From Eledone cirrhosa (taxonomy: Eukaryota): a DNA stretch of 64,000 nt. The translations under genes and the position numbers were made by a program. The stretch lies in assembly GCA_964016885.1 (NCBI GenBank), contig OZ024743.1, positions 92,132,001 through 92,196,000 on the forward strand, given 5' to 3'. How positions within the stretch are numbered: the stretch's first letter is position 1; each line of letters starts with the position of its first letter. This document shows positions 7,275 to 57,500 of the stretch, piece after piece. The notes beneath the pieces were generated by a model. The model did not search any database, had not been told where the DNA came from, and saw nothing but the letters and a program-made list of their open reading frames with translations.

Positions 7275-7845
7275 TTGTTATATTTGGGGAGGGTCATATT
7301 TGCGTAATATTGCCAGAATTAATAACAGAACACACTCACTGTTTGGTTGGTTTTCGCTTCTCGCTGTCTTTTATATATATATATCTGCGATCTAACTTAC
7401 TCGGTCCTCAATGTTGCCATTGACTGACCGGCGGTCAAAAATAATACAGATACAATATAGACAAACACATATATATATAGTTTACATAATTTACATAAAT
7501 CTTTCGTTGCACATCTGCAACATCGTCAGTGGTGTTATATTCATTGTTCCTCCTGTTGTGTTGTATGTCTACGCCATTTTTTTTTTGTTCAGTCTGTCTA
7601 TATATTTATTTATTTATTTGCTTGTTTGTTTATCTTATTTTATTTTGTCTTCTTTGCGCATGCGTTTGCGTGTGTGTATAGTGTTATGTGTGATGTGTGA
7701 CTAGTGTGTATAGTGTTGTGTCTGCTGGGTGACTAGTGTGTGTTTATGTGCTTGTGTATGTATTTATTTATCTTATTTTATTTATTTTATTTAATTTACT
7801 TATTTATTTATACTTCTCTTAGGTCAGTGTTGTTTGTTTGGGTGT
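7275..7845 (-). mobile_element. Solo 3' terminal (pLTR-like) fragment of a Penelope-like element with a degenerate hammerhead
   Basis: Terminus TATATTGTTATATTTGGGGAGGGTCAT resembles the end of the PLE at 57503. Minus strand 7493-7533 reads CTGACGA-T-GTTGCA-GATG-TGCAAC-GAAA-GATT-TA. Confidence 0.6.
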
Positions 7846-7850
7846 TGTTG

Positions 7851-8857
7851 TACAGTAGCATGCACATATATATATATATATACATATATACATACATATG
7901 CATACAGGTACACATACATATATGCACGTATCAGTTTAGCGGCGCTTATTATAACGTCGCTTTGTTCGTTTGTAAACAAACTGAACAGCCTGAATTTATG
8001 CCATACGGTGTTAAGGCAACCACGTCACCTTTTTGTTCAACACTGACACAGGAACGATGTACTAGTTTCAAGCTTGTTAGCTATCATCAGCACCGTTTAC
8101 CCATCTGCCAGATAGTTGAACGTTCGAAAGTATATACTTTCCTTATGAAAATTAACGGCTGAGCAGCCTAATTTGCATATTGAGTGAGTTAAATCGGTCA
8201 GGCATACCGAAAACGATAAATTGAAACAAAATGAAAACGAAATTTCATTTCTCACTCTTAGTATGGCACTTACTTAAATGTAAGTATGCATGTATACGTA
8301 CATACATATATGTATACAGACGTACAGTAGCATGCACATACTAAGAGTGAGAAATGAAATTTCGTTTTCATTTTGTTTCAATTTATCGTTTTCGGTATGC
8401 CTGACCGATTTAACTCACTCAATATGCAAATTAGGCTGCTCAGCCGTTAATTTTCATAAGGAAAGTATATACTTTCGAACGTTCAACTATCTGGCAGATG
8501 GGTAAACGGTGCTGATGATAGCTAACAAGCTTGAAACTAGTACATCGTTCCTGTGTCAGTGTTGAACAAAAAGGTGACGTGGTTGCCTTAACACCGTATG
8601 GCATAAATTCAGGCTGTTCAGTTTGTTTACAAACGAACAAAGCGACGTTATAATAAGCGCCGCTAAACTGATACGTGCATATATGTATGTGTACCTGTAT
8701 GCATATGTATGTATATATGTATATATATATATATATGTGCATGCTACTGTACGTCTGTATACATATATGTATGTACGTATACATGCATACTTACATTTAA
8801 GTAAGTGCCATACTAAGAGTGAGAAATGAAATTTCGTTTTCATTTTGTTTCAATTTA
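7851..8857. mobile_element. Non-autonomous hammerhead-bearing retroelement (retrozyme-like), 472-bp unit, inverted copy + forward copy
   Basis: TACAGTAGCATGCACATA recurs at 7851 and 8323, and CATACTAAGAGT recurs at 8337 and 8809 (both period 472). 8337-8857 is the reverse complement of a circular permutation of 7851-8340. Confidence 0.8.
8505..8549 (+). ncRNA. Minimal type I hammerhead ribozyme (mirror copy on - strand at 8053-8097)
   Basis: AACGGTG-CTGATGA-T-AGCT-AACA-AGCT-T-GAAA-CTAG-TA-CATCGTT: 7-bp helix I, intact core, palindromic CTAG helix III, GUA triplet. Confidence 0.8.
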
Positions 8858-15717: not shown

Positions 15718-15786
<69 letters not shown>

Positions 15787-15791
15787 CTATA

Positions 15792-15854
<63 letters not shown>

Positions 15855-15879
15855 GTATATATATATGTATATATATATC

Positions 15880-15910
<31 letters not shown>

Positions 15911-15983
15911 CTATATATATGTATATATATATAAATATATATATATATGTATATATATATATATGTATATATATATTTATATG

Positions 15984-16020
<37 letters not shown>

Positions 16021-16039
16021 GTATATATATATTTATATG

Positions 16040-16135
<96 letters not shown>

Positions 16136-16140
16136 TATAT
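15717..16140. repeat. (TA)n microsatellite
   Basis: Direct reading. Confidence 0.95.
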
Positions 16141-17368
16141 TTCAGAGCATTTATTCCAATTTCTAATTTCTGCCGGACCGGCAACCGCTCTTTCAAACCA
16201 GTTCCTGTACACAGCTAAGTATTCTATAAGTCTCTAGCTGTGTCATTCTCGATAAAAGCACTGGATATGTAGTCCTGATGATTTCTAACGAGAATGAAAC
16301 GCGTAGATTACTTCCCTTGCTTTTATCGAGAATCTAATTGTAATACGTGACGTATTCTATTCTATAGCGATTAGGTCTTCAAAATGTTTATTATAAACAT
16401 ACAGAATATTTTCGAATATTCTATGTCTATATTCACATATATATCGCTATTTCAGAGCATTTATTCCAATTTCTAATTTCTGCCGGACCGGCAACCGCTC
16501 TTTCAAACCAGTTCCTGTACACAGCTAAGTATTCTATAAGTCTCTAGCTGTGTCATTCTCGATAAAAGCACTGGATATGTAGTCCTGATGATTTCTAACG
16601 AGAATGAAACGCGTAGATTACTTCCCTTGCTTTTATCGAGAATCTAATTGTAATACGTGACGTATTCTATTCTATAGCGATTAGGTCTTCAAAATGTTTA
16701 TTATAAACATACAGAATATTTTCGAATATTCTATGTCTATATTCACATATATATCGCTATTTCAGAGCATTTATTCCAATTTCTAATTTCTGCCGGACCG
16801 GCAACCGCTCTTTCAAACCAGTTCCTGTACACAGCTAAGTATTCTATAAGTCTCTAGCTGTGTCATTCTCGATAAAAGCACTGGATATGTAGTCCTGATG
16901 ATTTCTAACGAGAATGAAACGCGTAGATTACTTCCCTTGCTTTTATCGAGAATCTAATTGTAATACGTGACGTATTCTATTCTATAGCGATTAGGTCTTC
17001 AAAATGTTTATTATAAACATACAGAATATTTTCGAATATTCTATGTCTATATTCACATATATATCGCTATTTCAGAGCATTTATTCCAATTTCTAATTTC
17101 TGCCGGACCGGCAACCGCTCTTTCAAACCAGTTCCTGTACACAGCTAAGTATTCTATAAGTCTCTAGCTGTGTCATTCTCGATAAAAGCACTGGATATGT
17201 AGTCCTGATGATTTCTAACGAGAATGAAACGCGTAGATTACTTCCCTTGCTTTTATCGAGAATCTAATTGTAATACGTGACGTATTCTATTCTATAGCGA
17301 TTAGGTCTTCAAAATGTTTATTATAAACATACAGAATATTTTCGAATATTCTATGTCTATATTCACAT
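16141..17368 (+). mobile_element. Four tandem identical 310-bp hammerhead-containing units (non-LTR retrozyme-like array)
   Basis: Unit start TTCAGAGCAT at 16141, 16451, 16761 and 17071. Each unit has one HHR and no ORF, and the array is flanked by (TA)n. Confidence 0.88.
16269..16311 (+). ncRNA. Minimal type I hammerhead ribozyme (copies at 16579, 16889, 17199)
   Basis: GTAGTC-CTGATGA-T-TTCT-AACG-AGAA-T-GAAA-CGCG-TA-GATTAC. It is enclosed by a perfect 16-bp inverted repeat, ATTCTCGATAAAAGCA (16245-16260) / TGCTTTTATCGAGAAT (16318-16333). Confidence 0.85.
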
Positions 17369-19175
<1,807 letters not shown>

Positions 19176-20342
19176 TGTAGATAAATCTATCAAGAGTTTA
19201 CGGTAGTGTCCAATCCGTATGAAGAACTCAATGTATTCCGGATATCATGGAAAGAAGAGATGTAATGAAAATCCACTTTCGGTGAAAGATAAACGGTATA
19301 CAGAGTCAAGATAAAATATTAAACAAATAATGAACAAACAATTCCTTATATTAAACAAAAAAAGTTCACTATTTAACGATCGTTTCTAGGGTATATATGT
19401 GTTATAATTGGTATGCATATTCAACAGATCTATGTACAAAATTATACAAAATTATACAAATTATCAAGATTAAATATACATACCTAACACATATATACGC
19501 CGTCTTCAGAAATAATGAAGTATATTTATTGATAATAACAACAATTCAAAATATCAGTTCAAAATTGACCAATGAAAACACAAAGGGTTAAAAGCAGTTT
19601 GGTGTGTGTATATACATGTAAAATCCTTACACATATTTTACAATAATGTGTGTATAATTTGTATGTGCATACTAAAAAGATGGATGCAAACACAAAATTT
19701 CAAGGTTAATATCTCTGTAAGCTTAATGCGCTGATAAGATGCGCAATGATACTTATGGAGTCAAGCATATAAATATATTTTTTTCATACTCACACATATC
19801 AGTATAATCACACATACATGCGCGTATATGCATAAATATACACATAACCACGAACATACAAACACACACACTCCCACACTCACATTTATATATGTGGATA
19901 TAAAATCATAAACAAATAGAAATTAAGTCACTCACATAAAACACTGGCACACACATTTCAAGATCAAGATACAGAAATAAGGTGGGAGGGGGGGGGAGGG
20001 GTCAGTATTAGATTGTCAGAGCAGACTGCCTAATATAAATGTATCTATAAATTAAGAAAAATAAAAAAATAAAAACAATAAAATATAATAAATATAATAT
20101 AATGTACATACACATACAGATATACATACACATACATACATGTACGCGCACATAGAGATATTTACGCATACACACATACACACATACGTATACAGTCATA
20201 CACACACATACACTTACACGAACATACACATACACATATAAAAGGATATATATACACACACACACACACGCGCAACACATACACACATACACATATATAT
20301 AAAAAATAGATAATAAAGATATATATCCATATATATATATAT

Positions 20343-36137: not shown

Positions 36138-37638
36138 ATATAGGCATAAGAGGAATCAAATGCCATGTGCAGGAGAGGAGATTACATTGGTATGGACATG
36201 CCATGCGTATGAAGGATGGCAGCTGCATAAAAAAGTGCAGATCGCTCAAAGTCGATGGAAGCCTGGGAGTGGGGAGAGCCAGGAAGACTTGGGATGAGGT
36301 GATAAAAGTCAACCCTGCCCAACTGCACCTCTCAAAGGTGATGACACACGACCGGGATCTCTGGCGATACGCAGTAATACAGAAGATCTGACTTAGCACG
36401 AGCTGAGCATATGTACAGTATGCCCCACCCCAACACACCCTCCCACACACACCCCCAGTAGGACAGGCCAAAATAAATGCATCCTATAAAGCCCCCCCCC
36501 CCAGGCCACATTGTAAAGTGGCCGCGATGGTGACATGGCAAAAAGTGCCCAGCCCACTATGTAAGGTGGTCGTGTAGGTGTCACGACAAAAAGCACCCAG
36601 GCCTCACTGTAAAGTGGTTATGTAGGTGAGACAATAAAAAGCGCCCAGCCCACACTGTAAAGTGGTTGTGTAGGTAAGACAATAAAAAGCACCCAGCCCA
36701 CACTGTAAAGTGGTTGTGTAGGTAAGACAATAAAAAGCACCCAGCCCACACTGTAAAGTGGTCATGTAGGTGTCACAACAAAAAGCACCCAGGCCACACT
36801 GTAAAGTGGTCGTGTAGGTGTCACGACAAAAAGCACCCAGCCCACACTGTAAAGTGGTCGTGTAGGTGTCACAACAAAAAGCACCCAGCCCACACTGTAA
36901 AGTGGTCGTGTAGGTGTCACGACAAAAAGCACCCAGCCCACACTGTAAAGTGGTTGTGTAGGTAAGACAATAAAAAGCGCCCAGCCCACACTGTAAAGTG
37001 GTTGTGTAGGTAAGACAATAAAAAGCACCCAGCCCACACTGTAAAGTGGTTGTGTAGGTGAGACAATAAAAAGCACCCAGCCCACACTGTAAAGTGGTCG
37101 TGTAGGTGTCACAACAAAAAGCACCCAGGCCACACTGTAAAGTGGTCGTGTAGGTGAGACAACAAAAAGCACCCAGCCCACACTGTAAAGTGGTTGTGTA
37201 GGTGAGACAATAAAAAGCACCCAGCCCACACTGTAAAGTGGTCGTGTAGGTGTCACAACAAAAAGCGCCCAGGCCACACTGTAAAGTGGTCGTGTAGGTG
37301 AGACAACAAAAAGCACCCAGCCCACACTGTAAAGTGGTCGTGTAGGTGAGACAACAAAAAGCGCCCAGGCCACACTGTAAAGTGGTTGTGTAGGTGTCAC
37401 AACAAAAAGCGCCAAGCCACACTGTAAATTGGTCATGTAGGTGAGACCATAAAAAGCACCCAGTACTCACTATAAATTGAGGTTGACGTTGGGAAGGCAT
37501 CCAGCTACAGAAACTAAGCCAGAACCAGACCAGTAGGGACAAGACATGGTCACCTGACCTAGGATTGCCCACAACAGGACAATCCCGCCTAACCCATGCT
37601 AGCGTGGAAAATGGATGTAAGATGGAGGTGATGATGAT
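35630..37638 (+). mobile_element. 5'-truncated, decayed RTE LINE with a minisatellite-expanded 3' UTR
   Basis: Homologous to 62381-63703 (GKWPCSVCRKGV, RRLHWYGHAMRM, GRARKTWDEVI). Ends CATGCTAGCGTGGAAAATGGATGT...(GAT)n. Confidence 0.85.
36500..37470 (+). repeat. 48-bp minisatellite (~20 copies)
   Basis: Unit CCACACTGTAAAGTGGTCGTGTAGGTGTCACAACAAAAAGCACCCAGC; period seen at 36794/36842. Confidence 0.95.
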
Positions 37639-38185
37639 ATGTGTGTATATACACAAATATGTATATATAGACCATGTGTATATAGACCATATGTATATAA
37701 CTCCAGCCCACACTGTAAAGTGGACGTGTAAAAGACATGGCAAAAAGCACCCAGCACACACTGTCAATGTGGTTGGCGTTAGGGGGGGGGGGACATCCGG
37801 CCGTAGAAAACCAGTATGCAAATGTAGTTAATCAGCCCATTTACACAGATCAAAAGTTAAGGGGTTTTCTTTAATACCACTTGGTTTTAGGCTCAGACCC
37901 ACTGCAATTTGGGCAAGTGGCTTCTGCTATAGCCTTGGGTTGACTAATATCTTGTGTGTATATTTAAATGTGTATGTATTAGGTATGTATACTTCTTCTT
38001 CACTCACTTATTCCTGAGAGGGTCGTAAGTGCAGAGTCCTCAAACACTCCTTCCAGTGGATCCTGTCAGAAGCATCCCTCTCCAAATGATCCAGCTGGAT
38101 CCCTAAGTGTGATCAGCCAAGCTCATGGATGTCATCCAACCATCTTGATCGGGGCTTACTACCTGTTTATTTTGCCCATAAAATC

Positions 38186-41155
38186 TGTCCAGCAATTCTT
38201 TCCTGAGGCATTCTAACCACATGCCTATAGTATCATAGCTGTGATCTCTCAGTTCGGAGAAGTAGTGGCTCTATTTGGAGTGACACTCCAGTAATTCTTT
38301 CCTGAGACATTCTAACCACATGCCTATAGTATCATAGCTGTGATCTCTCAGTTCGGAGAAGTAGTGGCTCTATTTGGAGTGACACTCCAGTAATTCTTTC
38401 CTAAGACATTCTAACCTCATGCCTATAGTATCATAGCTGTGATCTCTCAGTTCGGAGAAGTAGTGGCTCTATCTCGAGTGACACTCCAGTAATTCTTTCC
38501 TAAGACATTCTAACCACATGCCTATAGTATCATAGCTGTGATCTCTCAGTTCGGAGAAGTAGTGGCTCTATCTCGAGTGACACTCCAGTAATTCTTTCCT
38601 GAGACATTCTAACCACATGCCTATAGTATCATAGCTGTGATCTCTCAGTTCGGAGAAGTAGTGGCTCTATTTGGAGTGACACTCCAGTAATTCTTTCCTA
38701 AGACATTCTAACCACATGCCTACAGTATCATAGCTGTGATCTCTCAGTTCGGAGAAGTAGTGGCTCTATCTCGAGTGACACTCCAGTAATTCTTTCCTAA
38801 GACATTCTAACCACATGCCTATAGTATCATAGCTGTGATCTCTCAGTTCGGAGAAGTAGTGGCTCTATCTGGAGTGACACTCCAGTAATTCTTTCCTGAG
38901 ACATTCTAACCACATGCCTATAGTATCATAGCTGTGATCTCTCAGTTCGGAGAAGTAGTGGCTCTATTTGGAGTGACACTCCAGTAATTCTTTCCTAAGA
39001 CATTCTAACCACATGCCTACAGTATCATAGCTGTGATCTCTCAGTTCGGAGAAGTAGTGGCTCTATCTCGAGTGACACTCCAGTAATTCTTTCCTAAGAC
39101 ATTCTAACCACATGCCTATAGTATCATAGCTGTGATCTCTCAGTTCGGAGAAGTAGTGGCTCTATCTCGAGTGACACTCCAGTAATTCTTTCCTAAGACA
39201 TTCTAACCACATGCCTATAGTATCATAGCTGTGATCTCTCAGTTCGGAGAAGTAGTGGCTCTATCTTGAGTGACACTCCAGTAATTCTTTCCTGAGACAT
39301 TCTAACCACATGCCTATAGTATCATAGCTGTGATCTCTCAGTTCGGAGAAGTAGTGGCTCTATCTGGAGTGACACTCCAGTAATTCTTTCCTGAGACATT
39401 CTAACCACATGCCTATAGTATCATAGCTGTGATCTCTCAGTTCGGAGAAGTAGTGGCTCTATTTGGAGTGACACTCCAGTAATTCTTTCCTAAGACATTC
39501 TAACCACATGCCTACAGTATCATAGCTGTGATCTCTCAGTTCGGAGAAGTAGTGGCTCTATCTGGAGTGACACTCCAGTAATTCTTTCCTGAGACATTCT
39601 AACCACATGCCTATAGTATCATAGCTGTGATCTCTCAGTTCGGAGAAGTAGTGGCTCTATTTGGAGTGACACTCCAGTAATTCTTTCCTAAGACATTCTA
39701 ACCACATGCCTACAGTATCATAGCTGTGATCTCTCAGTTCGGAGAAGTAGTGGCTCTATCTCGAGTGACACTCCAGTAATTCTTTCCTAAGACATTCTAA
39801 CCACATGCCTATAGTATCATAGCTGTGATCTCTCAGTTCGGAGAAGTAGTGGCTCTATCTGGAGTGACACTCCAGTAATTCTTTCCTGAGACATTCTAAC
39901 CACATGCCTATAGTATCATAGCTGTGATCTCTCAGTTCGGAGAAGTAGTGGCTCTATTTGGAGTGACACTCCAGTAATTCTTTCCTAAGACATTCTAACC
40001 ACATGCCTACAGTATCATAGCTGTGATCTCTCAGTTCGGAGAAGTAGTGGCTCTATCTCGAGTGACACTCCAGTAATTCTTTCCTAAGACATTCTAACCA
40101 CATGCCTATAGTATCATAGCTGTGATCTCTCAGTTCGGAGAAGTAGTGGCTCTATCTCGAGTGACACTCCAGTAATTCTTTCCTAAGACATTCTAACCAC
40201 ATGCCTATAGTATCATAGCTGTGATCTCTCAGTTCGGAGAAGTAGTGGCTCTATCTTGAGTGACACTCCAGTAATTCTTTCCTGAGACATTCTAACCACA
40301 TGCCTATAGTATCATAGCTGTGATCTCTCAGTTCGGAGAAGTAGTGGCTCTATCTGGAGTGACACTCCAGTAATTCTTTCCTGAGACATTCTAACCACAT
40401 GCCTATAGTATCATAGCTGTGATCTCTCAGTTCGGAGAAGTAGTGGCTCTATTTGGAGTGACACTCCAGTAATTCTTTCCTAAGACATTCTAACCACATG
40501 CCTACAGTATCATAGCTGTGATCTCTCAGTTCGGAGAAGTAGTGGCTCTATCTCGAGTGACACTCCAGTAATTCTTTCCTAAGACATTCTAACCACATGC
40601 CTATAGTATCATAGCTGTGATCTCTCAGTTCGGAGAAGTAGTGGCTCTATCTGGAGTGACACTCCAGTAATTCTTTCCTGAGACATTCTAACCACATGCC
40701 TATAGTATCATAGCTGTGATCTCTCAGTTCGGAGAAGTAGTGGCTCTATTTGGAGTGACACTCCAGTAATTCTTTCCTAAGACATTCTAACCACATGCCT
40801 ACAGTATCATAGCTGTGATCTCTCAGTTCGGAGAAGTAGTGGCTCTATCTCGAGTGACACTCCAGTAATTCTTTCCTAAGACATTCTAACCACATGCCTA
40901 TAGTATCATAGCTGTGATCTCTCAGTTCGGAGAAGTAGTGGCTCTATCTCGAGTGACACTCCAGTAATTCTTTCCTAAGACATTCTAACCACATGCCTAT
41001 AGTATCATAGCTGTGATCTCTCAGTTCGGAGAAGTAGTGGCTCTATCTTGAGTGACACTCCAGTAATTCTTTCCTGAGACATTCTAACCACATGCCTATA
41101 GTATCATAGCTGTGATCTCTCAGTTCGGAGAAGTAGTGGCTCTATCTGGAGTGAC
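38186..41155. repeat. 99-bp tandem satellite (~30 copies) amplified from RTE coding sequence on the - strand
   Basis: TGACACTCCA at 38281, 38380, 38479 ... 41053. The minus strand of the unit reads EPLLLRTERSQL*YYRHVVRM, and the flank 41156-41255 continues as RIRSQIPPAETGFLLRVFGVILLDRVVSLEMRESL. Confidence 0.93.
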
Positions 41156-41369
41156 TCTCTCATCTCCAAGCTAACCACTCTATCGAGTAATATTACTCCA
41201 AAGACCCTTAGGAGAAACCCAGTTTCGGCCGGCGGTATTTGTGATCGTATTCTTTGTGTGTGTATGATATATATATATCTAAATGTATATATTAGATGGG
41301 TATAAATTATGTGTGTATATATTTAAATGTGTATATATTTAAATGTGTTGATATATTAGGTGTGTATAT

Positions 41370-41545
41370 CATCATCATCGTTTAACGTCCATCTTCCACG
41401 CTAGCATGGGTTTGGACGGGGGGAATTTTCCCACGTGAGGCAAGATTGGTTGTCTTGCTCGCATAGGACTGTCTGGCGGGTTTTCTACGGCTGGATGCCC
41501 TTCCTAGCACCAACCACGTTTACAGTGTGGACTGGGAGGTTTTTG
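41370..41545 (-). mobile_element. RTE-type 3' tail fragment (similar pieces at 47535-47700 -, 59040-59293 +, 61020-61250 -)
   Basis: Reverse complement of GAAGGGCATCCAGC...CATGCTAGCGTGGAA...GGACGTTAAAC(GAT)n, as seen at the end of the RTE at 63560-63703. Confidence 0.75.
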
Positions 41546-41546
41546 A

Positions 41547-41900
41547 TCACCATCACCATCACCACCATCACCATCACCATCATCACCACCACCACCATCA
41601 CCATCATCACCATCATCACCATCACCATCACCATCACCATCTTTGTCATCACCTTTACGATTTTGAGAGGAGAAAAAATAATTTTGATTTATTCTTCTAT
41701 AACATGTGAAGTTATTGAATATTTTTAAAAGCTAAACACAGCTTGTGTTGTTGTTGTTGTGGTGGTGGTGAGGATGTTTGTGATGTTGTTGTGGTGGTGG
41801 TGGTGATGGTGGTGGTGGTAGTGGTGGTGGTAGTGGTGGTGGTGATGGTAGTGGTGGTGGTGGTAGTGGTGGTGGTGATGGTGGTGGTGGTGGTGGTGGG
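41547..41900. repeat. (CAC/CAT)n and (GTG/GTA)n trinucleotide tracts
   Basis: Direct reading; source of the poly-H and poly-V ORFs. Confidence 0.9.
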
Positions 41901-42960
41901 GTGTATATACAGGGGTATATATTTGAATATGTTTATATTAGGTGGGTGTATATACAGGGGTATATATTTGAATGTGTTTATATTAGGTGGGTGTATATAC
42001 AGGGGTATATATTTGAATATGTTTATATTAGGTGGGTGTATATACAGGGGTATATACTTGAATGTGCTTATATTAGGTGGGTGTATATACAGGGGTATAT
42101 ATTTGAATGTGTTTATATTAGGTGGGTGTATATACAGGGGTATATATTTGAATATGTTTATATTAGGTGGGTGTATATACAGGGGTATATATTTGAATGT
42201 TTATTTAGGTGGGTGTATATACAGGGGTATATATTTGAATGTGTTTATATTAGGTGGGTGTATATACAGGGGTATATATTTGAATATGTTTATATTAGGT
42301 GGGTGTATATACAGGGGTATATATTTGAATGTGTTTATATTAGGTGGGTGTATATACAGGGGTATATATTTGAATGTGTTTATATTAGGTGGGTGTATAT
42401 ACAGGGGTATATATTTGAATGTTTATTTAGGTGGGTGTATATACAGGGGTATATATTTGAATGTGTTTATATTAGGTGGGTGTATATACAGGGGTATATA
42501 TTTGAATATGTTTATATTAGGTGGGTGTATATACAGGGGTATATATTTGAATGTGTTTATATTAGGTGGGTGTATATACAGGGGTATATATTTGAATGTG
42601 TTTATATTAGGTGGGTGTATATACAGGGGTATATATTTGAATGTTTATTTAGGTGGGTGTATATACAGGGGTATATATTTGAATGTGTTTATTTAGGTGG
42701 GTGTATATACAGGGGTATATATTTGAATGTGTTTATATTAGGTGGGTGTATATACAGGGGTATATATTTGAATGTGTTTATATTAGGTGGGTGTATATAC
42801 AGGGGTATATATTTGAATGTTTATTTAGGTGGGTGTATATACAGGGGTATATATTTGAATGTGTTTATTTAGGTGGGTGTATATACAGGGGTATATATTT
42901 GAATGTGTTTATATTAGGTGGGTGTATATACAGGGGTATATATTTGAATGTGTTTATAGG
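41899..42960 (+). repeat. 45-bp minisatellite (~24 copies, some with 2-4 bp deletions)
   Basis: Unit GTGTATATACAGGGGTATATATTTGAATGTGTTTATATTAGGTGG; period seen at 41901/41946. Confidence 0.95.
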
Positions 42961-43487
42961 TGGGTATCTATTTGTGTATATATTAAGGGGTGTATATTTA
43001 AATGTGTATATATATTAGCTGGGTATATATTTATGTATCTATTAGATGGATGTATATACAGGAGATATCTATTTGAATGTGTACATATTAGTTGTGTATA
43101 TAGTTAAGTGGGTATACATTAGATGTGTATATATTAGGTGTGTACATATTGGGTGTGTATATATTAAGTATGTATATATTGGGTAGTGTATATATTGAGT
43201 GGGTATATATTGAGTGAGTATATATTGAGTGGGTATATATTACGTGGGTATATATTATGTGTGTATATATACTGGGAGGGTGTATATTGTGTGTGTATAT
43301 ATTAGGTGTGTATATATTAGGTGTGTACATATTGGGTGTGTACATATTGGGTGTGTATATATACTGGGTATATGTGTAATTGTATATATTCAAGTGTATA
43401 TATTAGGTGGGTATATATTAAATGTGTAAATATGATGATGATATTAGATGTGTATATATTAGGTATGTATATTTAAATGTATACATA

Positions 43488-43508
43488 TCTATACATATAA
43501 AAGCAAGG

Positions 43509-43561
<53 letters not shown>

Positions 43562-44272
43562 TGAGGACAATTTTGGACAGCTAAGGCTTTTACAATTCCC
43601 AACCGAATTTGACCAAATTTTCTGTGCACGTTGCACCTGTCGCTAAGATGATCACATCACAAAACATTTTTCAAATCGACCCACGTTGAGCAATAAAAAA
43701 TTGATAGCAAAATTATTTTTTCTAAAGTGCATGATGTAAGGGAGATAAGAATGAAGACAAAATCCTTATGGGATTTTCCATGCAAATTAAAAGTTGCAAT
43801 TACTTTTACATTTATCGAGCTCTTTTTACCAAATGTGAGGCAGGCATTGCCTATGCCGTCGAGGTAATACAAGAAGATTATTTTTTCTAAAGTGTATGCT
43901 GTAAGGGAGAAATCAATCTAAAAACAATCTTTATGGGACTTTCCATTCAAACAGTTGGGACCTACACCTTTTACACTTTTTAAAGTAATTTCGTCCACAT
44001 TTGAGGCAGGCATTATCTATGCTTCCAGGATATTGTGAATTTATAAAAAATAAAACTATTATTACAATGAAGAAATCAGAAACAAAATTTTCCTTCATTA
44101 TCAGCATAGTTTTATGTGTCCAAAGATTGCACTAAATATTCGTTTGCATTAATTATTGAAGACTTCTGTTTATTTTGACAGGTTGGGGACAAATAATTTT
44201 CTTCTTTTACTTCCTAGCTGTATATTCTTATCATAATTTCAAACCCCTGGCAACGCCGGGTAAATCTGCTAG
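43488..44272 (+). mobile_element. Non-autonomous Helitron-like element
   Basis: 5' A|TC-TATACATATAAAAGC + (GT)n. 3' CCCTGGCAACGCCGGG hairpin then CTAG|T. Internal ~165-bp duplication. Confidence 0.75.
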
Positions 44273-44543
44273 TTAAGTATATATTAGATATGTATATATA
44301 TTTGTGTATATATATATTGAGTATATATTTAAGTGTATATACATTAAGTTTGTATATAATAGGTGCATATATTAAATATGTATATATTACATGTGGTGAT
44401 CGTGGTGGTAGCGGTGGCATACCTATATATATCTGTCTGTCTGTTTGTCTCTGTCTGTCTTCCCGTCTGTCTGTCCATCTATCCATCTGTCTATCTATCT
44501 ATCCATCTGTCTATCTATCTATCCACCTGTCTATCTATCTATC

Positions 44544-46260
44544 TGCCCTCTCTCCTCCCTTCTGTACGTACTGACTCTCGAGCCACTACTGCGGAAGTGG
44601 AGCTATTGCAAGAAATCCCTCTGGAACCGGGACGCCGACGACGTGACAGTAATGGTGTCGAGCACCTCGCAAATCGAGGAAAGTCGGCACCTTACTGAAG
44701 GAATACGAAAGGTTCACAGGAGCGAAGCTGAACCAGGACAAGTCCATCGGTTTGCAACTCGGATCGTGGAGAGGCAAACCGATGCCTTCCGATGGCGTCG
44801 TCGGACGCTGGACGGAAGGACCGGTAAAGCTGCTCGGGGTCTGGTTTGGTTCGGACCTCCAGGTGGAGAAGAACTGGAACGAGATGACGGCCAAGGTCTT
44901 TACACTCACCGAGAAGTGGGCCGAGTGCAAACTATCCTTGAAAGGTCGAGCGGAGGTGGCGAACACTTTTATAGCGTCCGCCATCTACTACCGCTTGACC
45001 GTCGTGCCTTGTCCAGCCAAAACGCTCACCAAAATGGAGCGCGCGCTCTTCCAATTCCTTTGGAAGAAGCGGGCTCCTTTGGTGAGAAGATCCATCTGCT
45101 GCCAACACCCTTCAAACGGAGGGTTGGGGCTGCCGTGGCTGACGATGCGCAAACACGCGCTCAGGCTGCGGCACCTCCACGTATTCCACACCGGACAACC
45201 GGTGTGGGCTCCGTTCGTGAGGCGAGCATTCCCACGACTCGTCTCGCTGACCGAGCTGCAGTCCTGGGTCAAGCAAAGACCGAGGAAAATGGGCGACTGG
45301 CACATCGAATGTGCTCAGGTACTCACAGTCCTCTGGCAAATGGGCCCGACGATCACTGGAGACTCCACTTCGTCATTCTATAGAGGGTTGGTCCGCAGCA
45401 AGTGCGACGACGCACTCGGAGAAATTCTGAGCGTAGAGGAAGACAAACTGGCCAGTCTGTTCGGTAGAACCTTCCGCCCGGGACCGATGGACAACTTCCA
45501 AAAGTCCCTGGCCTGGCAGTGCTACCGAGGAGCTCTACCAGTTCGAGACAAGCTCTACAGACATGGGCGCCCGGGCAGGGACCCTTTGAAAAAGATCTGT
45601 CCGAGATGCGTGCGCGACGAGGAAACCGTCGGGCACGCATTTGTACACTGCCCGGGCGTTACCGACCTGTGGGGCTATGTAGAATGACTATTGTCGTGGG
45701 TGGGACCAATCCAGTTGACCACCGAGTCCATTGTCATGATCAAACCGCCACCCTCCTTCAAAAACGAAGGAGGGGCAGTTTTCCTCTGTGTGATAGCTAT
45801 GGCGAAAGAGGTTGTATGGTGGACAAGGTTGAAAGGGCTGAGGTCAGACACCTTTCTCTCCGGCCAAAAACTGGTTCTTTTTTTCAAATACCACTTTGGA
45901 AGAAGAATCAGGATGGAGAGAGAGGTGCTGTACCCCAGCAAGTTTTATGAAACGTGGGTGAAAGTGGCGAGAATGGCCCCAGTGAATGGGCCTTCTCTCT
46001 ATATCAGCCTGTAGGTTGAGGAAAAGGAGGAGGAGAGGAAAGGAGTGCAAACTCTTCGCACTCCTGGAGTAGAGGGTTGCACTTTTTTTTTTGGGGGGGG
46101 GGGTATGTGTTACCCATATGTAATGTCTCCCCCTATTGGGGAAAATCGACTAACTTTTTAAATTGCATTTGTGATAATATTTTACACGTTTTTATTGTAT
46201 GTAAACTTCCCCCTTTGTATTTGTCCCCTTCTTTTGTGCCCCTGTGGCTAATAAAGAAAC
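44544..46260 (+). mobile_element. 5'-truncated L1/Tx1-type LINE (RT C-terminus + zf-RVT), pseudogenised
   Basis: CPLSSLLYVLTLEPLLRK, ADDVTV, VKLLGVWFG, LSLKGRAEVAN, GGLGLP, GALPV and CPRC..EETVGHAFVHC. Frameshifts and a stop at 45685. AATAAA at the 3' end; both flanks are (CTAT/CTGT)n. Confidence 0.9.
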
Positions 46261-47699
46261 ATATCTATCTATCTATCCATCTATCTGTCTGTTTGTCTGT
46301 CTGTCCCTCCGTCCATCTATCTATCTGTCTGACTATCTGTCTGTCTCATCATCATTATCATCTTGTGGATTGGCAGCATCGAGTTCAAATCCCGCCGAGG
46401 TTAACTTTGCCTTTCATCCTTACGGGATCGATAAAATAAAGTACCAGTAATGTACTGGGTAATTGCTGGCCTTGTGCCTAAAGTAGAAACAATTATCATC
46501 ATTCCGTGCTGATATGGGTTGGATGGGTTATTACAATCCAACCAGTCTCTTCCTCAGTGTTATTACCCTCTTAGTTCATTGGACCACATCTTGCTTGAAA
46601 ACCTTCTAGCCCATGTCACAATGAAGCCTCACCCCACTTAAACATTAAATAATTGTTTCTACCTTAGGCACAAGGCCAGCAATTACCCAGTGCATTACTG
46701 GTACTTTATTTTATCGACCCCGTAAGGATGAAAGGCAAACCTCGGCGGGATTTGAACTCAGATCGTAAAGGGACGTAACTATGCTGGAAAGCATGGCGTC
46801 CGACCCTCCACCGATACTGCCAATCCACCGCCTAAACATTAAATAATGATGATGATGATGGTGGTGGTGGTAGTTCATATATTGTTTGTTTACATTTTGT
46901 CATACAAACATGCAAATGTAATCAATACTTTTCTATGTACATGTCTGTGTGTCTTAGCTTTTCGGTGTATATATATATATGTGTGTGTATATATGTATGT
47001 GTATGTATATATATATTTATGTATGTATGTGTGTTTAAGTTTTTATATGTGAAATATATATGTATGTTTGTATGTATGAGTATGTATATGTGTATGTGTG
47101 TGTATCCGTTATGTATACAAGCAGGGACAAGCAGACGTAAAATGATGATGATGATATGTATGTGTGTATGTATGTATGTGTGTGTCCGTTTATGTATACA
47201 TATATGTACATAGAGCTATATAGGCACTCTCTCTCACACACACACACACACACATACACATAATTACTCACACATATATACATAGTTATGTAAGCACTTA
47301 TATATTTAACACACATATCCATGCATACTTACATTCATACTCACATAAACACATACGTTTTTCTTACACCCACTCATTTCTCTCTTACACAAACACACAC
47401 ACGTTTCTCTAATACACACACATACACATGCATACACGTCTACATTGAACACGTCCTGCTGATACACACATGATGATATTTGGTTAATGGTTAAGTCTGC
47501 AGTGATCCCAGATCTCCTGTGTGAAATCAATAGATATCATCATCATTAACATTTAACATCCATTTTTCCATGCTAGCATTGGATAAACAAGTTGTCCCTT
47601 TGAGAGGCAAGCCAGGTCAGATGACCATGTCTTACTCTTACAGAACTGATTTGGACTTGGTTTCTACTGTTGGGTGCCCTCCCTAATTTCAATCACCTT

Positions 47700-50020
47700 T
47701 ACAGTGTGAACTGGGTGCTTTTTGTTGTGACACCTACATGACTACTTTTACAGTGTGAACTGGGTGCTTTTTGTTGTGACACCTACATGACTACTTTTAC
47801 AGTGTGAACTGGGTGCTTTTTGTTGTGACACCTACAAGACTACTTTTACAGTGTAGACTGGGTGCTTTTTGTTGTGACACCTACATGACTACTTTTACAG
47901 TGTAGACTGGGTGCTTTTTGTTGTGACACCTACATGACTACTTTTACAGTGTAGACTGGGTACTTTTTGTTGTGACACCTACATGACTACTTTTACAGTG
48001 TAGACTGGGTACTTTTTGTAGTGACACCTACAAGACTACTTTTACAGTGTAGACTGGGTGCTTTTTGTTGTGACACCTACAAGACTACTTTTACAGTGTA
48101 GACTGGGTGCTTTTTGTTGTGACACCTACATGACTACTTTTACAGTGTAGACTGGGTGCTTTTTGTTGTGACACCTACATGACTACTTTTACAGTGTAGA
48201 CTGGGTGCTTTTTGTTGTGACACCTACATGACTACTTTTACAGTGTAGACTGGGTGCTTTTTGTTGTGACACCTACATGACTACTTTTACAGTGTAGACT
48301 GGGTGCTTTTTGTTGTGATACCTACAAGACTACTTTTACAGTGTAGACTGGGTGCTTTTTGTTGTGACACCTACATGACTACTTTTACAGTGTAGACTGG
48401 GTGCTTTTTGTTGTGATACCTACAAGACTACTTTTACAGTGTAGACTGGGTGCTTTTTGTTGTGACACCTACATGACTACTTTTACAGTGTAGATTGGGT
48501 GCTTTTTGTTGTGACACCTACATGACTACTTTTACAGTGTAGACTGGGTGCTTTTTGTTGTGACACCTACATGACTACTTTTACAGTGTAGACTGGGTGC
48601 TTTTTGTTGTGACACCTACAAGACTACTTTTACAGTGTAGACTGGGTGCTTTTTGTTGTGACACCTAAATGACTACTTTTACAGTGTGAACTGGGTGCTT
48701 TTTGTTGTGACACCTACATGACTACTTTTACAGTGTAGACTGGGTGCTTTTTGTTGTGACACCTACATGACTACTTTTACAGTGTGAATTGGGTGCTTTT
48801 TGTTGTGACACCTACATGACTACTTTTACAGTGTAGACTGGGTGCTTTTTGTTGTGACACCTACATGACTACTTTTACAGTGTAGACTGGGTGCTTTTTG
48901 TTGTGACACCTACATGACTACTTTTACAGTGTAGACCGGGTGCTTTTTGTTGTGATACCTACAAGACTACTTTTACAGTGTAGACTGGGTGCTTTTTGTT
49001 GTGACACCTACATGACTACTTTTACAGTGTAGACTGGATGCTTTTTGTTGTGACACCTACATGACTACTTTTACAGTGTAGACTGGGTGCTTTTTGTTGT
49101 GATACCTACACGACTACTTTTTCAGTGTAGACTGGGTGCTTTTTGTTGTGACACCTACATGACTACTTTTACAGTGTGAACTGGATGCTTTTTGATGTGA
49201 CACCTACATGACCACTTTACAGTGTGAACTGGGTGCTTTTTGTTGTGACACCTACATGACTACTTTTACAGTGTGAACTGGGTGCTTTTTGTTGTGACAC
49301 CTACATGACCACTTTACAGTGTGAACTGGGTGCTTTTTGTTGTGACACCTACATGACTACTTTTACAGTGTGAACTGGGTGCTTTTTGTTGTGACACCTA
49401 CATGACTACTTTTACAGTGTAGACTGGGTGCTTTTTGTTGTGACACCTACATGACTACTTTTACAGTGTGAACTGGGTGCTTTTTGTTGTGACACCTACA
49501 TGACTACTTTTACAGTGTAGACTGGGTGCTTTTTGTTGTGACACCTACATGACTACTTTTACAGTGTGAACTGGGTGCTTTTTGTTGTGACACCTACATG
49601 ACTACTTTACAGTGTGAACTGGGTGCTTTTTGTTGTGACACCTACATGACTACTTTTACAGTGTAGACTGGGTACTTTTTGTTGTGACACCTACATGACT
49701 ACTTTTACAGTGTGAACTGGGTGCTTTTTGTTGTGACACCTACATGACTACTTTTACAGTGTGAACTGGGTGCTTTTTGTTGTGACACCTACATGACTAC
49801 TTTTACAGTGTAGACTGGGTGCTTTTTGTTGTGACACCTACATAACTACTTTTACAGTGTGGACTGGTGCTTTTTGTTGTGACACCTACATGACTACTTT
49901 TACAGTGTGGACTGGGTGCTTTTTGTCATGACACTTACAGAACCACTTTATAATGTGGGTTGGGTGTTTATTGTTGTGACACCTATACAACCACTTCACA
50001 GTGTGGACTAGGTGCTTTTA
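47700..50020 (-). repeat. 49-bp minisatellite (~47 copies), reverse-complement relative of the 48-bp array at 36500
   Basis: Unit ACAGTGTAGACTGGGTGCTTTTTGTTGTGACACCTACATGACTACTTTT; period seen at 47701/47750; abuts an RTE tail at 47535-47700. Confidence 0.95.
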
Positions 50021-51743: not shown

Positions 51744-51840
51744 GGCTTCTACAGGACTAGAATTGTTTCATTCGTATGAAATCATCAGGAATATCCTGAT
51801 GATTTCATACGAATGAAACAGTTCTGGTCCTGTAGAAGCC
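51744..51840. repeat. 97-bp near-perfect palindrome made of two head-to-head hammerhead cores
   Basis: Right arm CTGATGA-T-TTC-ATAC-GAA-T-GAAA-C (51796-51819); the left arm is its reverse complement. Confidence 0.75.
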
Positions 51841-51887: not shown

Positions 51888-53470
<1,583 letters not shown>

Positions 53471-53912: not shown

Positions 53913-56313
53913 CTGGGGAAGAATGTACCCCACAGCATAGGTTAGTCGTTAGTGATATCTCAGTAAGCAAGAGACGAATGAGACATACAGGAAGGTGTGG
54001 AGAAGAAAGGTCTGGAAGCTAGAAGACCTTTCACTAAAATACAAATTTAGGAAAGCCCTTCAAGATGTGTATGACGAAAATGAAGATGATTTAGAGTCGT
54101 ATGACATAGATGATAACTGGAATTTCTTACGTGACAACTTACTGCAGGCTTCTGATGAAACTTGTCGCTGGAGCAGAGCTCCAACCAGACATAGGGTGAC
54201 TTGGTGGTGGAACAGCACGGTAGATAGGGCCATTAGAGACAAAAGACTAGCATGGAAGGCTTGGAAAAAGGGTGGGAAGGTAGGGAAGGATATACAGCCG
54301 CTACGAGAGCTAGACGTCAGGTGTATTTAGCACGCAGCGAGGTTGAGAGTAGGAGGTTTGCCAATGTTCTGCGACGGGAAGATCAGAGATGTGCGGTGTT
54401 CCACATTGCAAGGCAGTGTGTCAATGCAAATCAGGATGTTGTTGGAGATAAATGTGTCTGGAATGATGCCGGTGTACTTAGTGTCACGAATGATCAGAAA
54501 AAGGAGGCCTGGAAATGTCATTATGAGAGACTGATGAATGTAGAGAATGAATGGGAGAGAGAGAAATTATCCTCAGTAGATCCGACAAAGGGACCAGCTA
54601 TTGAGATTGACGAATATAGGGTCCAAGAGGCGATTAAGGAAATGAAAAATGGTAAGGCTGCTGGACCATCGGGGATAGTTGCTGAGATGCTGAAGGCTTC
54701 AGGGGACGAAGGCACTAGACTGGTTGCACGCATCATCAATCAGGCTCTATATGGTGGTGTCATACCCAAAGACTGGTGCAGCAGTATTCTCATAAATTGC
54801 TACAAAGGTAAAGAGGATGTTCTGGAGAGGAGCAATTATAGATGTATAAAACTGATGGATCAGGTTATGAAAGTGGCAGAAAGGATATTATCACAACTAA
54901 TTAGAGAAAGGGTGAAACTAGATGAGATGCAGTTTGGTTTTGTGCCTGGGAAAAGTACGACAGATGCCCTCTTCTTGGTGAGACAATTACAAGAGAGGTT
55001 CTTAGAAAAGAATAAACCATTATACTTAGCCTTTGTTGACCTAGAGAAGGCCTTTGATAGGGTACCCCAATCTATCATCTGGTGGTCCCTAAAGAAACTA
55101 GGTGTTGAGGAATGGCTTGTGAGGACAGTGCAAACTTTGTACAGAGGTGCTGTCAGTAAAGTGAGGGTAGGAATGGAGTTTAGTGAGGAATTCCAGATAC
55201 AAGTAGGGGTACATCAGGGTTCGGTCCTCAGCCCGCTCTTGTTCATTATAGTCCTCCAAGCCATAACAGAGGAGTTTAAGACTGGCTGTCCATGGGAACT
55301 TCTCTATGCTGACGATCTGGTTCTTATAGCAGAATCAGTAGAGGAGCTAGAGAATAAATTCTGGCTATGGAAACATCAGTTGGAAGCAAGAGGACTGAGA
55401 GTGAACCTAGCTAAGACGAAAGTGTTGATGAGTAGAAAAGAGGACAAAACTCTGATTCCGTCAGGGAAATGCCCATGTTCGATATGCAGAAATGGAACTC
55501 GCATAAATTCTATAAAATGCACACAATGCAGATCTTGGGTACACAAGAGATGTAGTGGGATAGCAGGCACACTAACAAGTAGGGAGAAATACGTATGCAA
55601 TAGATGTACAGGCAAATTAAACAGTAGAAGTCACATAGATAGACACATTTTTCAAATGCAGGAGGGTGCTATAAAAGTGGTTGATAGCTTCCGGTAACTA
55701 GGAGATCAGATTAGCATGGGCGGTGGGTGGGTGGCGGGATGTTCCAAGGCCATAGTATCTAGAATAAGGACGGGTTGGAAGAAGTTTAGGGAGCTGCTTC
55801 CTCTGCTGACGAAGAAGGGTTTCTCCCTGCATACGAAAGGCCGATTATATGATGCCTGTGTGAGGAGCGCGATGCTCCATGGTAGTGAGACATGGACAGC
55901 AACTGCAGAGGATATGTGACGGCTGGAGAGAAATGAGGCAAACATGCTCTGTTGGATGTGCAATGTCAATGTGTGTGAACGATCGAGCATGGATGTGTTG
56001 AGAGAGAAACTGTCTGAGAGGGATAAGTTGTAGTGTGCGAGAGAGGAGACTGAGGTGGTATGGACATGTGATGCGCATGAAGGATGACCGATGGGTGAAG
56101 AAGTGCCAGGAAATGCCAGTTGAAGGAAGACGTGGTAGAGGTAGACCACGAAAAACATGGGTGGAGGTGGTGAGAGAAGACTTCAGATCATTGAAGTTCA
56201 CAGTGGAGATGACGACGGACCGTGACAAATGGAGAGATGCTGTGCTGAATAGGACCCATCCCACCCTTGCAAGCAGGGAAAAGCGGACATAAAATGATGA
56301 TGATGATGATGAT
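53911..56313 (+). mobile_element. 5'-truncated RTE-clade LINE (end of APE domain, RT, PHD-like finger), pseudogenised, (GAT)n tail
   Basis: [58 protein letters not shown] and RRLRWYGHV; frameshifts and stops. Confidence 0.95.
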
Positions 56314-56883: not shown

Positions 56884-56891
<8 letters not shown>

Positions 56892-57500
56892 TTAGAATTG
56901 GAGCTCTGAAATAGCAATATATATATGGATGTATATATAATGTATTTTGCAATACACTTTATGCTTAATTAAAAGCATTTTGAAGACCGTAAGCTATTGT
57001 TTTAAAGTAGTGACAAATTCACTTACTTTGATCTCAGCAAACAGGGGAGATAAGCCGACAATGCCTTGTTTCGCTATTGTTGAAGCTTATCAAGGCTAAC
57101 TACTCCTTCCTGTCTACCGAGATCACCGATGTTATATTCTTATAGAATTCTAGTAAATAATCAGGAGCTGATTATGCAGAGCGGTTGTTGGTCAGGCAGA
57201 AATTAAAAATTAGAATTGGAGCTCTGACCAACAACCACTCTGCATAATCAGCTCCTGATTATTTACTAGAATTCTATAAGAATATAACATCGGTGATCTC
57301 GGTAGACAGGAAGGAGTAGTTAGCCTTGATAAGCTTCAACAAAAGCGAAACAAGGCATTGTCGGCTTATCTCCCCTGTTTGCTGAGATCAAAGTAAGTGA
57401 ATTTGTCACTTTAAAACAATAGCTTACGGTCTTCAAAATGCTTTTAATTAAGCATAAAGTGTATTGCAAAATACATTATATATACATCCATATATATATA
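56884..57500. mobile_element. Non-autonomous hammerhead-bearing element, 318-bp unit, inverted copy + forward copy; homologous to the 310-bp unit at 16141
   Basis: ATTAAAAATTAGAATTGGAGCTCTGA at 56884 and 57202. 57224-57500 is the reverse complement. Shares TCAGAGC..CCAATT..TCTGCC.GACC..CAACCGCTCT, ATTCTATAAG and GGTCTTCAAAATG with the 310-bp unit. Confidence 0.82.
57322..57366 (+). ncRNA. Type I hammerhead ribozyme, U3-A8 core variant (mirror copy on - strand ~57053-57097)
   Basis: AGCC-TTGATAA-GCTT-CAACAA-AAGC-GAAA-CAA-GGCA-TTG-TC-GGCT. Helix I is extended by GATCTCGGTAGACAGG/CCTGTTTGCTGAGATC. Confidence 0.82.

Follow-up and report, generated by a model that had tools for sequence, protein, structure and literature searches.

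How did a short array of hammerhead-bearing repeats come to stand in the middle of a TA microsatellite, and which enzyme put it there? The array lies in a 64,000-nucleotide stretch of the Eledone cirrhosa genome that is called the window below. On the plus strand, 16138–17374 repeats exactly every 310 bp (1237 bp, 3.99 units, 0 mismatches) and is set between a left part (15718–16137) and a right part (17375–19190) of the (TA)n target tract. A preliminary description counted four identical units; the three full units, starting at 16141, 16451 and 16761, are indeed identical, and the fourth matches them until it meets (TA)n, a few bases short of completion. When the unit is numbered from the base immediately 3′ of the predicted ribozyme cut, the array has its 5′ end at unit position 143 and its 3′ end at a position that we call site A. 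The 3′ junction there, leading into (TA)n at 17365–17374 on the plus strand, is ambiguous through microhomology. No partner arm was found in the window or in the 10 kb to each side, and the array is a one-arm, site-A insertion.

The 310-nt unit has a G+C content of 34.5%. When the unit is doubled, all three of its plus-strand frames are interrupted by stops, and neither a polymerase III box A or B motif nor a minus-strand hammerhead core was found in the unit. Arrays adjoin (TA)n directly, with no LTR structure seen, and the open reading frame of an autonomous Penelope-like element (PLE), with reverse transcriptase (RT) and GIY-YIG, is absent from the retrozyme loci. Short tandem hammerhead units that carry no coding frame and are dispersed at many loci bear out the retrozyme reading put forward in the preliminary description, and by its sequence the element appears to join a class already known, the animal non-LTR retrozymes. 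A plain satellite was considered and rejected because the family occupies many dispersed loci with fixed ends.

The hammerhead and its predicted folds

Each unit contains CTGATGA, a 14-nt helix II region, GAAA, CGCG and TA, with CTGATGA at 16275 and every 310 bp thereafter and GAAA at 16296. The four type I hammerhead copies span 16269–16311, 16579–16621, 16889–16931 and 17199–17241 on the plus strand, with predicted cuts after 16305, 16615, 16925 and 17235; the intact core and the predicted cut after 16305, both named at the outset, recur in every repeat. Helix I comprises 6 bp including one G-U (16269–16274 with 16306–16311) and is extended by the perfect 16-bp inverted repeat already described (16245–16260 with 16318–16333, plus strand, repeated every 310 bp). 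The two extra stems reported with it likewise have arms that are exact reverse complements, one being a 9-bp hairpin stem formed by 16209–16217 and 16235–16243 (span 16209–16243, plus strand) and the other pairing 16364 with 16443. Helix II has four positions, the first pair being U-U, or A-U in 15 loci. The hammerhead also has an internal loop 1, and its loop 2 measures 6 nt.

One term has to be replaced. The hammerhead had been called minimal, and its 6-bp helix I, four-position helix II and palindromic helix III have the dimensions given for the canonical metazoan type I ribozyme, in which helix III is short (PMC4209133). The same source describes the PLE min-HHR with a helix II of 7–8 bp, a helix I of 4–5 bp, a bulged base before helix II and a helix III that is mostly absent. 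Judged by these published dimensions, the window ribozyme would be a canonical metazoan type I hammerhead of the dimer type and not a PLE min-HHR.

Helix III is unable to close in a single copy because its loop is 2 nt long. For an unconstrained two-copy transcript the best predicted fold is a double hammerhead, in which the palindrome of one copy pairs with that of the other. It reaches –109.9 kcal/mol where two single folds give –94.6 kcal/mol, and scores z = –6.1 in a comparison with 100 shuffles. This agrees with the dimer-type ribozyme suggested earlier, and self-cleavage is predicted to proceed as a double hammerhead. Folding of the circular monomer, a check that the preliminary description had recommended, gave a predicted –67.8 kcal/mol compared to –49.5 ± 4.6 kcal/mol for 100 shuffles, suggesting that the 310-nt monomer is stably self-paired.

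Rfam returned no hammerhead match to the window sequence at E values up to 10, and otherwise only microsatellite-driven microRNA noise; the ribozyme call therefore rests on motif, fold and relatives. A sister family scores 19 bits with RF02275 (E = 0.067), for which the gathering score is 52, with the core kept, a different helix II and a weak alignment along Rfam HH9. Across 87 loci, clonal changes in the ribozyme affect N7, loop II, the first helix II pair (U-U to A-U) and helix I, where they keep the pairing. The 12 core positions show no clonal change where about one is expected, a difference that alone is not significant.

A young, high-copy family with locus-specific haplotypes

The exact 43-nt motif has 4,033 copies in the genome and its reversed control none, so that the hammerhead motif is not there by chance. 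A degenerate family core has 17,796 copies in 3.0 Gb, again with none for the reversed control, which by simple arithmetic amounts to about 5.5 Mb of genome if every core represents one unit. The retrozyme family is young and present in high copy number, and the 4,033 identical motifs among 17,796 family cores uphold the recent amplification proposed for the window array.

Among 68 loci with at least two full units we distinguished 28 haplotypes, 21 of which were found once. The majority haplotype is common to both arms in 43 of 45 loci, compared to a match in 12% of random locus pairs. Arms reach 48 units, and in 54 of 69 loci each of the two inverted arms contains more than one unit. Where units meet across the cut site, 725 of 727 junctions are clean, and most arrays contain only 0–3 single-unit changes, a uniformity that assembly polishing may exaggerate. 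One unit copied many times is the simplest explanation for private haplotypes, matching arms and clean junctions of this kind, and a circular template would provide such scar-free repeat copying. Of the rolling-circle-like reverse transcription raised in the preliminary description, the repeated copying of one template gains support from the same counts. Some arrays are mosaic: the haplotype changes within one arm at L061, the arms differ at L166, and variant patterns repeat within the arrays at L073, L052 and L050. The mosaics at L061, L166 and L073 suggest that some templates were multimers, that the enzyme sometimes switched templates or that some arrays were duplicated afterwards.

A two-ended insertion footprint at other loci

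The main feature of the family is a PLE-type two-ended footprint at other loci, which lay beyond the view of the first reading of the window. The locus set consists of all loci in the first 134 Mb of contig C1 that were listed by two end patterns and ten loci listed by the 43-nt motif. L073 and L074 were merged, the duplicate at L059 was counted once, and internal pieces of L041 and fragments below 45 bp were excluded. In this census, in which most loci were chosen by one end and the limits of classes A and B were fixed after viewing the data, 69 of 86 loci are two-armed, the minus array coming first, the plus array second and the two being joined at their 5′ ends, and in 69 of these 69 one arm has an A end and the other a B end. 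Site A falls at unit positions 118–139, with 130 and 139 the most frequent. Some 35 nt beyond it lies site B, at 157–172 and mostly at 165. Projected onto the window, the "tail" between site A (unit 126–139) and site B (unit 163–172), where the arms of the family end, occupies 16435–16470 on the plus strand. A further 16 loci are one-armed (11 A and 5 B, two of the 16 adjoining N gaps) and one is ambiguous. In a second sample, made up of the first 17 loci listed by the ribozyme core alone, the 12 clear two-arm cases are all A plus B, four are one-armed and one is ambiguous; the last, L230, has a B arm and a short inverted piece that ends away from A.

TA repeats adjoin 153 of 158 A or B ends, and target duplications are long in irregular tracts (34 bp at L047 and 26 bp at L068). 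The inner ends are spread around the unit (n = 156, chi-square p = 0.18), with mild non-uniformity by the Rayleigh test (p = 0.02), and 3 of 156 lie no more than 5 nt from the cut. As the ends do not coincide with the cut site, we rejected insertion from linear monomers released by cleavage. Descent from fragments of an autonomous PLE was rejected as well, since no one-arm locus runs on into shared or coding sequence. Two loci deviate in their arms: at L152 the inverted B arm is reduced to about 11 nt, and at L053 the arms are separated by 272 bp of unrelated DNA.

Penelope-like elements as the probable mobilising enzyme class

A PLE protein is described that nicks AT-rich DNA on both strands and extends each of them, and whose synthesis starts at two sites inside the RNA, which delimit a tail of 30–40 bp (PMC11167929). 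PLE insertions are reported to include an inverted 5′-truncated copy, with the tail often at only one end (PMC8557442). We regard the mobilisation of the retrozyme as very probably PLE-type.

GIY-YIG sequences are abundant in the genome (10,597 candidates, 150 of them scored), and three of the five frames tested for RVT_1 and GIY-YIG contain both. One very young autonomous PLE family (L190–L199) has intact 900-aa frames, which differ by 3–15 of 2,703 bases, as well as tandem and inverted copies, and a relative of it at L121 bears RVT_1 and GIY-YIG. Eight loci of this young family were examined, six of them chosen for minus/plus pairs; at 6 of 6 two-arm loci the arms of the intact PLE stand back to back with the same A/B pairing of ends, one end being 40 nt longer. 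Both ends are joined to (TA)n, and tandem copies lie inside the arms. The retrozyme module described below is absent from the terminal repeats of seven sampled PLE families by profile and BLAST (no Naiad-type copy, with an N-terminal endonuclease, being in the sample), and this comparison brought up only further non-coding relatives. The link to PLEs is therefore drawn by geometry and not by homology.

Hammerheads also occur in the PLEs themselves. The L190–L199 family has a hammerhead-like core whose fourth base is changed in most copies, and the PLE families at L111:3240–8500, L082 and L105 have hammerheads in which helix III is palindromic and the core is of the U3-A8 variant.

A putative terminal RNA module

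Several non-coding relatives share a conserved stretch of about 110 nt that leads up to sites A and B. In the window, a four-helix RNA module common to the sister families surrounds site A at 16364–16450 on the plus strand and is probably the recognition and start region of the RT, with site A at the loop of its last hairpin. Over ten aligned sequences 96.5% of the pairs are kept and four pairs are changed on both sides. None of 500 shuffles matches the pairing or covariation score, and 35 match the count of double-changed pairs; as the structure was drawn from the same ten sequences, which come from few lineages, the support is moderate. The module presumably recruits the PLE enzyme.

Elements with this module include a sister non-coding family at 56885–57500 of the window, a two-arm insertion in (TA)n with a B-type end on its minus arm and an A-type end on its plus arm. 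More distant non-coding relatives with the module were seen at L217:740–2915, L037:40–510 and L086:507–615, of which L217 is tandem, with a different hammerhead and A/B-type ends.

Proposed mechanism and the nature of the template

Taking these results together, we consider it probable that the window array is a young retrozyme insertion into (TA)n, derived from a double-hammerhead RNA and likely made by a PLE enzyme; cleavage, the circle, the enzyme and the order of events are what we infer from the arrays. In the scheme that we propose, a tandem transcript would be cut every 310 nt in a dimer-dependent manner and the monomer would be ligated into a circle. PLE protein would bind the structured module, nick both strands of the (TA)n tract and prime twice inside the RNA, at site A and, about 35 nt downstream of it, at site B. 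Both primers would then be extended many times around the template, and the joining of the far ends of both products would give back-to-back arrays. The window would represent a minority outcome of this reaction, with the site-A arm alone. That the usual template is a circular monomer is the part of the scheme that we hold with moderate confidence.

A different template could be combined with the same PLE enzyme and priming sites: an uncut linear read-through transcript, with a ribozyme that is slow or irrelevant and no circle. We think this unlikely, while granting it some weight. The block-wise haplotype switches at L061 speak for it, and weak cleavage is predicted from the basal U-U of helix II together with the 2-nt loop III. 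Unprocessed RNA is reported to be the main PLE substrate in vitro, with cleavage dispensable for insertion (PMC11167929), and a slow ribozyme would agree with the eight of nine Xenopus dimers reported without cleavage (10.64898/2026.07.22.740005). However, 21 of the 28 haplotypes belong to single loci and are yet fixed array-wide, for which a one-unit bottleneck is required, and arms as long as 48 units as well as the double hammerhead as the predicted ground state of the dimer also argue against such a template. Expansion in place, by which unequal exchange or slippage would lengthen short PLE-type insertions and the tandem form would be unrelated to reverse transcription, is improbable as a general explanation. 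Local amplification has been proposed in a preprint (10.64898/2026.07.22.740005), and the repeating variant patterns at L073, L052 and L050 suggest that some local duplication does occur, but this process would have to account for loci in which both inverted arms are multi-unit and share one haplotype, and for the few single-unit changes in most arrays. The autonomous PLE likewise has tandem copies in its arms.

It is very improbable that a LINE or another non-PLE enzyme mobilises the RNA, with the inversion arising by ordinary twin priming. LINE sequence is present in the window, and no PLE with matching ends was found in the seven families sampled; the unit, however, has no poly(A) or simple-repeat 3′ end, and both outer ends are fixed, internal and 35 nt apart, which is the pattern of a PLE tail. 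In LINE twin priming, the second primer is not known to be bound to one site. Finally, N gaps near some loci and the duplication of the L059 locus beside a gap could suggest that arrays and inversions are assembly artefacts in microsatellite-rich DNA. We find this hardly credible in view of the locus-specific haplotypes, the distinct inner junctions, the two fixed end sites and the long target duplications at L047 and L068. Contigs of run X3 also have TA-joined ends at both sites, although X3 may be the assembly's own source.

On the ribozyme strand, A-to-G makes up 9 of 26 clonal substitution types compared to 6 of 77 single-unit changes (Fisher p = 0.002, in a post hoc test that assumes the majority base to be ancestral). 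Seven of the nine types lie in predicted stems, and positions 20 and 276 have each changed on four backgrounds. A-to-I RNA editing and selection for G-U pairs fit this excess equally well, and under either reading it points to plus-strand RNA as an intermediate. Runs X1 and X2, which have other-organism labels and are of unrecorded kind, each gave one 340-nt contig that corresponds to one period plus overlap. These contigs are identical to the window haplotype, and a circle, tandem DNA or contamination would fit them equally. Among the sequencing runs listed as holding the sequence, none is recorded as an RNA run.

More tentatively, and with somewhat less than even confidence in the whole, we suggest that one PLE complex primes both strands on one circle and rolls in both products, which would produce the tail and the inverted arm. 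The module shared by the circles would recruit the PLE enzyme without recognisable shared terminal sequence, and RNA-level changes, possibly A-to-I, would become fixed array-wide. If this is true, the arrays would preserve, in the genome, the reaction of a PLE with a circle the size of a viroid, and the PLE tail and inverted arm would arise from one obligate asymmetric event.

Relation to known systems

Animal non-LTR retrozymes and their circles have been published for coral, mussel and axolotl (PMC7229834). Like the present family, they form dispersed tandem units, of 170–400 nt with a G+C content below 50%, with a single type I hammerhead in each unit, no coding frame and a self-paired monomer, and helix II of axolotl HHR_Amex2 also begins with a U-U. 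Both cleavage and circular RNA were demonstrated there; here cleavage is predicted and the circle proposed. The words "inverted", "tail" and "microsatellite" do not appear in the main text of that paper, whereas here it is the insertion geometry that names the enzyme class.

In their insertions, the EN+ PLEs (Poseidon PAc, PMC11167929; Neptune and Naiad, PMC8557442) resemble the retrozyme in AT-rich or (TA)n targets, back-to-back inverted arms, end sites 30–40 nt apart downstream of a hammerhead, and tandem copies within the arms. The retrozyme differs from them in having no RT or endonuclease, a unit of 310 nt and no homology to the terminal repeats of the seven PLE families sampled. PLE-derived retrozymes of Xenopus, described in a preprint (10.64898/2026.07.22.740005), are also non-autonomous hammerhead tandem repeats alongside PLEs. 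The link in the available text of that preprint is made by homology and co-occurrence, with no analysis of ends, whereas in our case the link is made by the ends and PLE homology is missing. Chlamys MRC1-type non-autonomous elements similarly have PLE partners and multicopy head-to-tail insertions (PMC8557442). Their 3′ end resembles that of their autonomous families and, as described in that source, their clade has no canonical hammerheads, unlike the retrozyme.

According to a 2020 review, retrozyme repeats contain no motif that reveals their driver (PMC7761336), and PLEs were proposed as drivers in the 2026 Xenopus preprint. The origin of the PLE tail and inverted arms is presented as unresolved in the text of PMC8557442. 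In the mostly open literature that we searched, where retrozyme papers were covered by their text and not by figures or supplements, we found no report of a strict A/B two-arm footprint for retrozymes. The footprint bears on the question of which enzyme mobilises animal retrozymes, and this family offers it in countable form, with one A and one B end per insertion. The defined module of about 110 nt and the 310-nt substrate could be used in the existing in vitro PLE assay.

Other elements in the window

A back-to-back insertion at 7843–8857 belongs to another hammerhead family, with cores at 8090 (minus) and 8512 (plus) and a period of about 470–510 bp; this family is tandem in L121 too. The short fold-back element at 51757–51838 has hammerhead-like cores at 51788 (minus) and 51796 (plus), and its relative in L129 and L119 is 74% like positions 226–305 of the retrozyme unit. 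An inverted-repeat element at 52020–53460 is rearranged and contains, at minus-strand position 52488, a core-like CTGATGA...GAAAC. Judged by eye, 53930–56290 appears to be a decayed frame for a LINE reverse transcriptase that ends in (GAT)n, and minisatellites with periods of 48, 99, 45 and 49 bp occupy 36500–50019.
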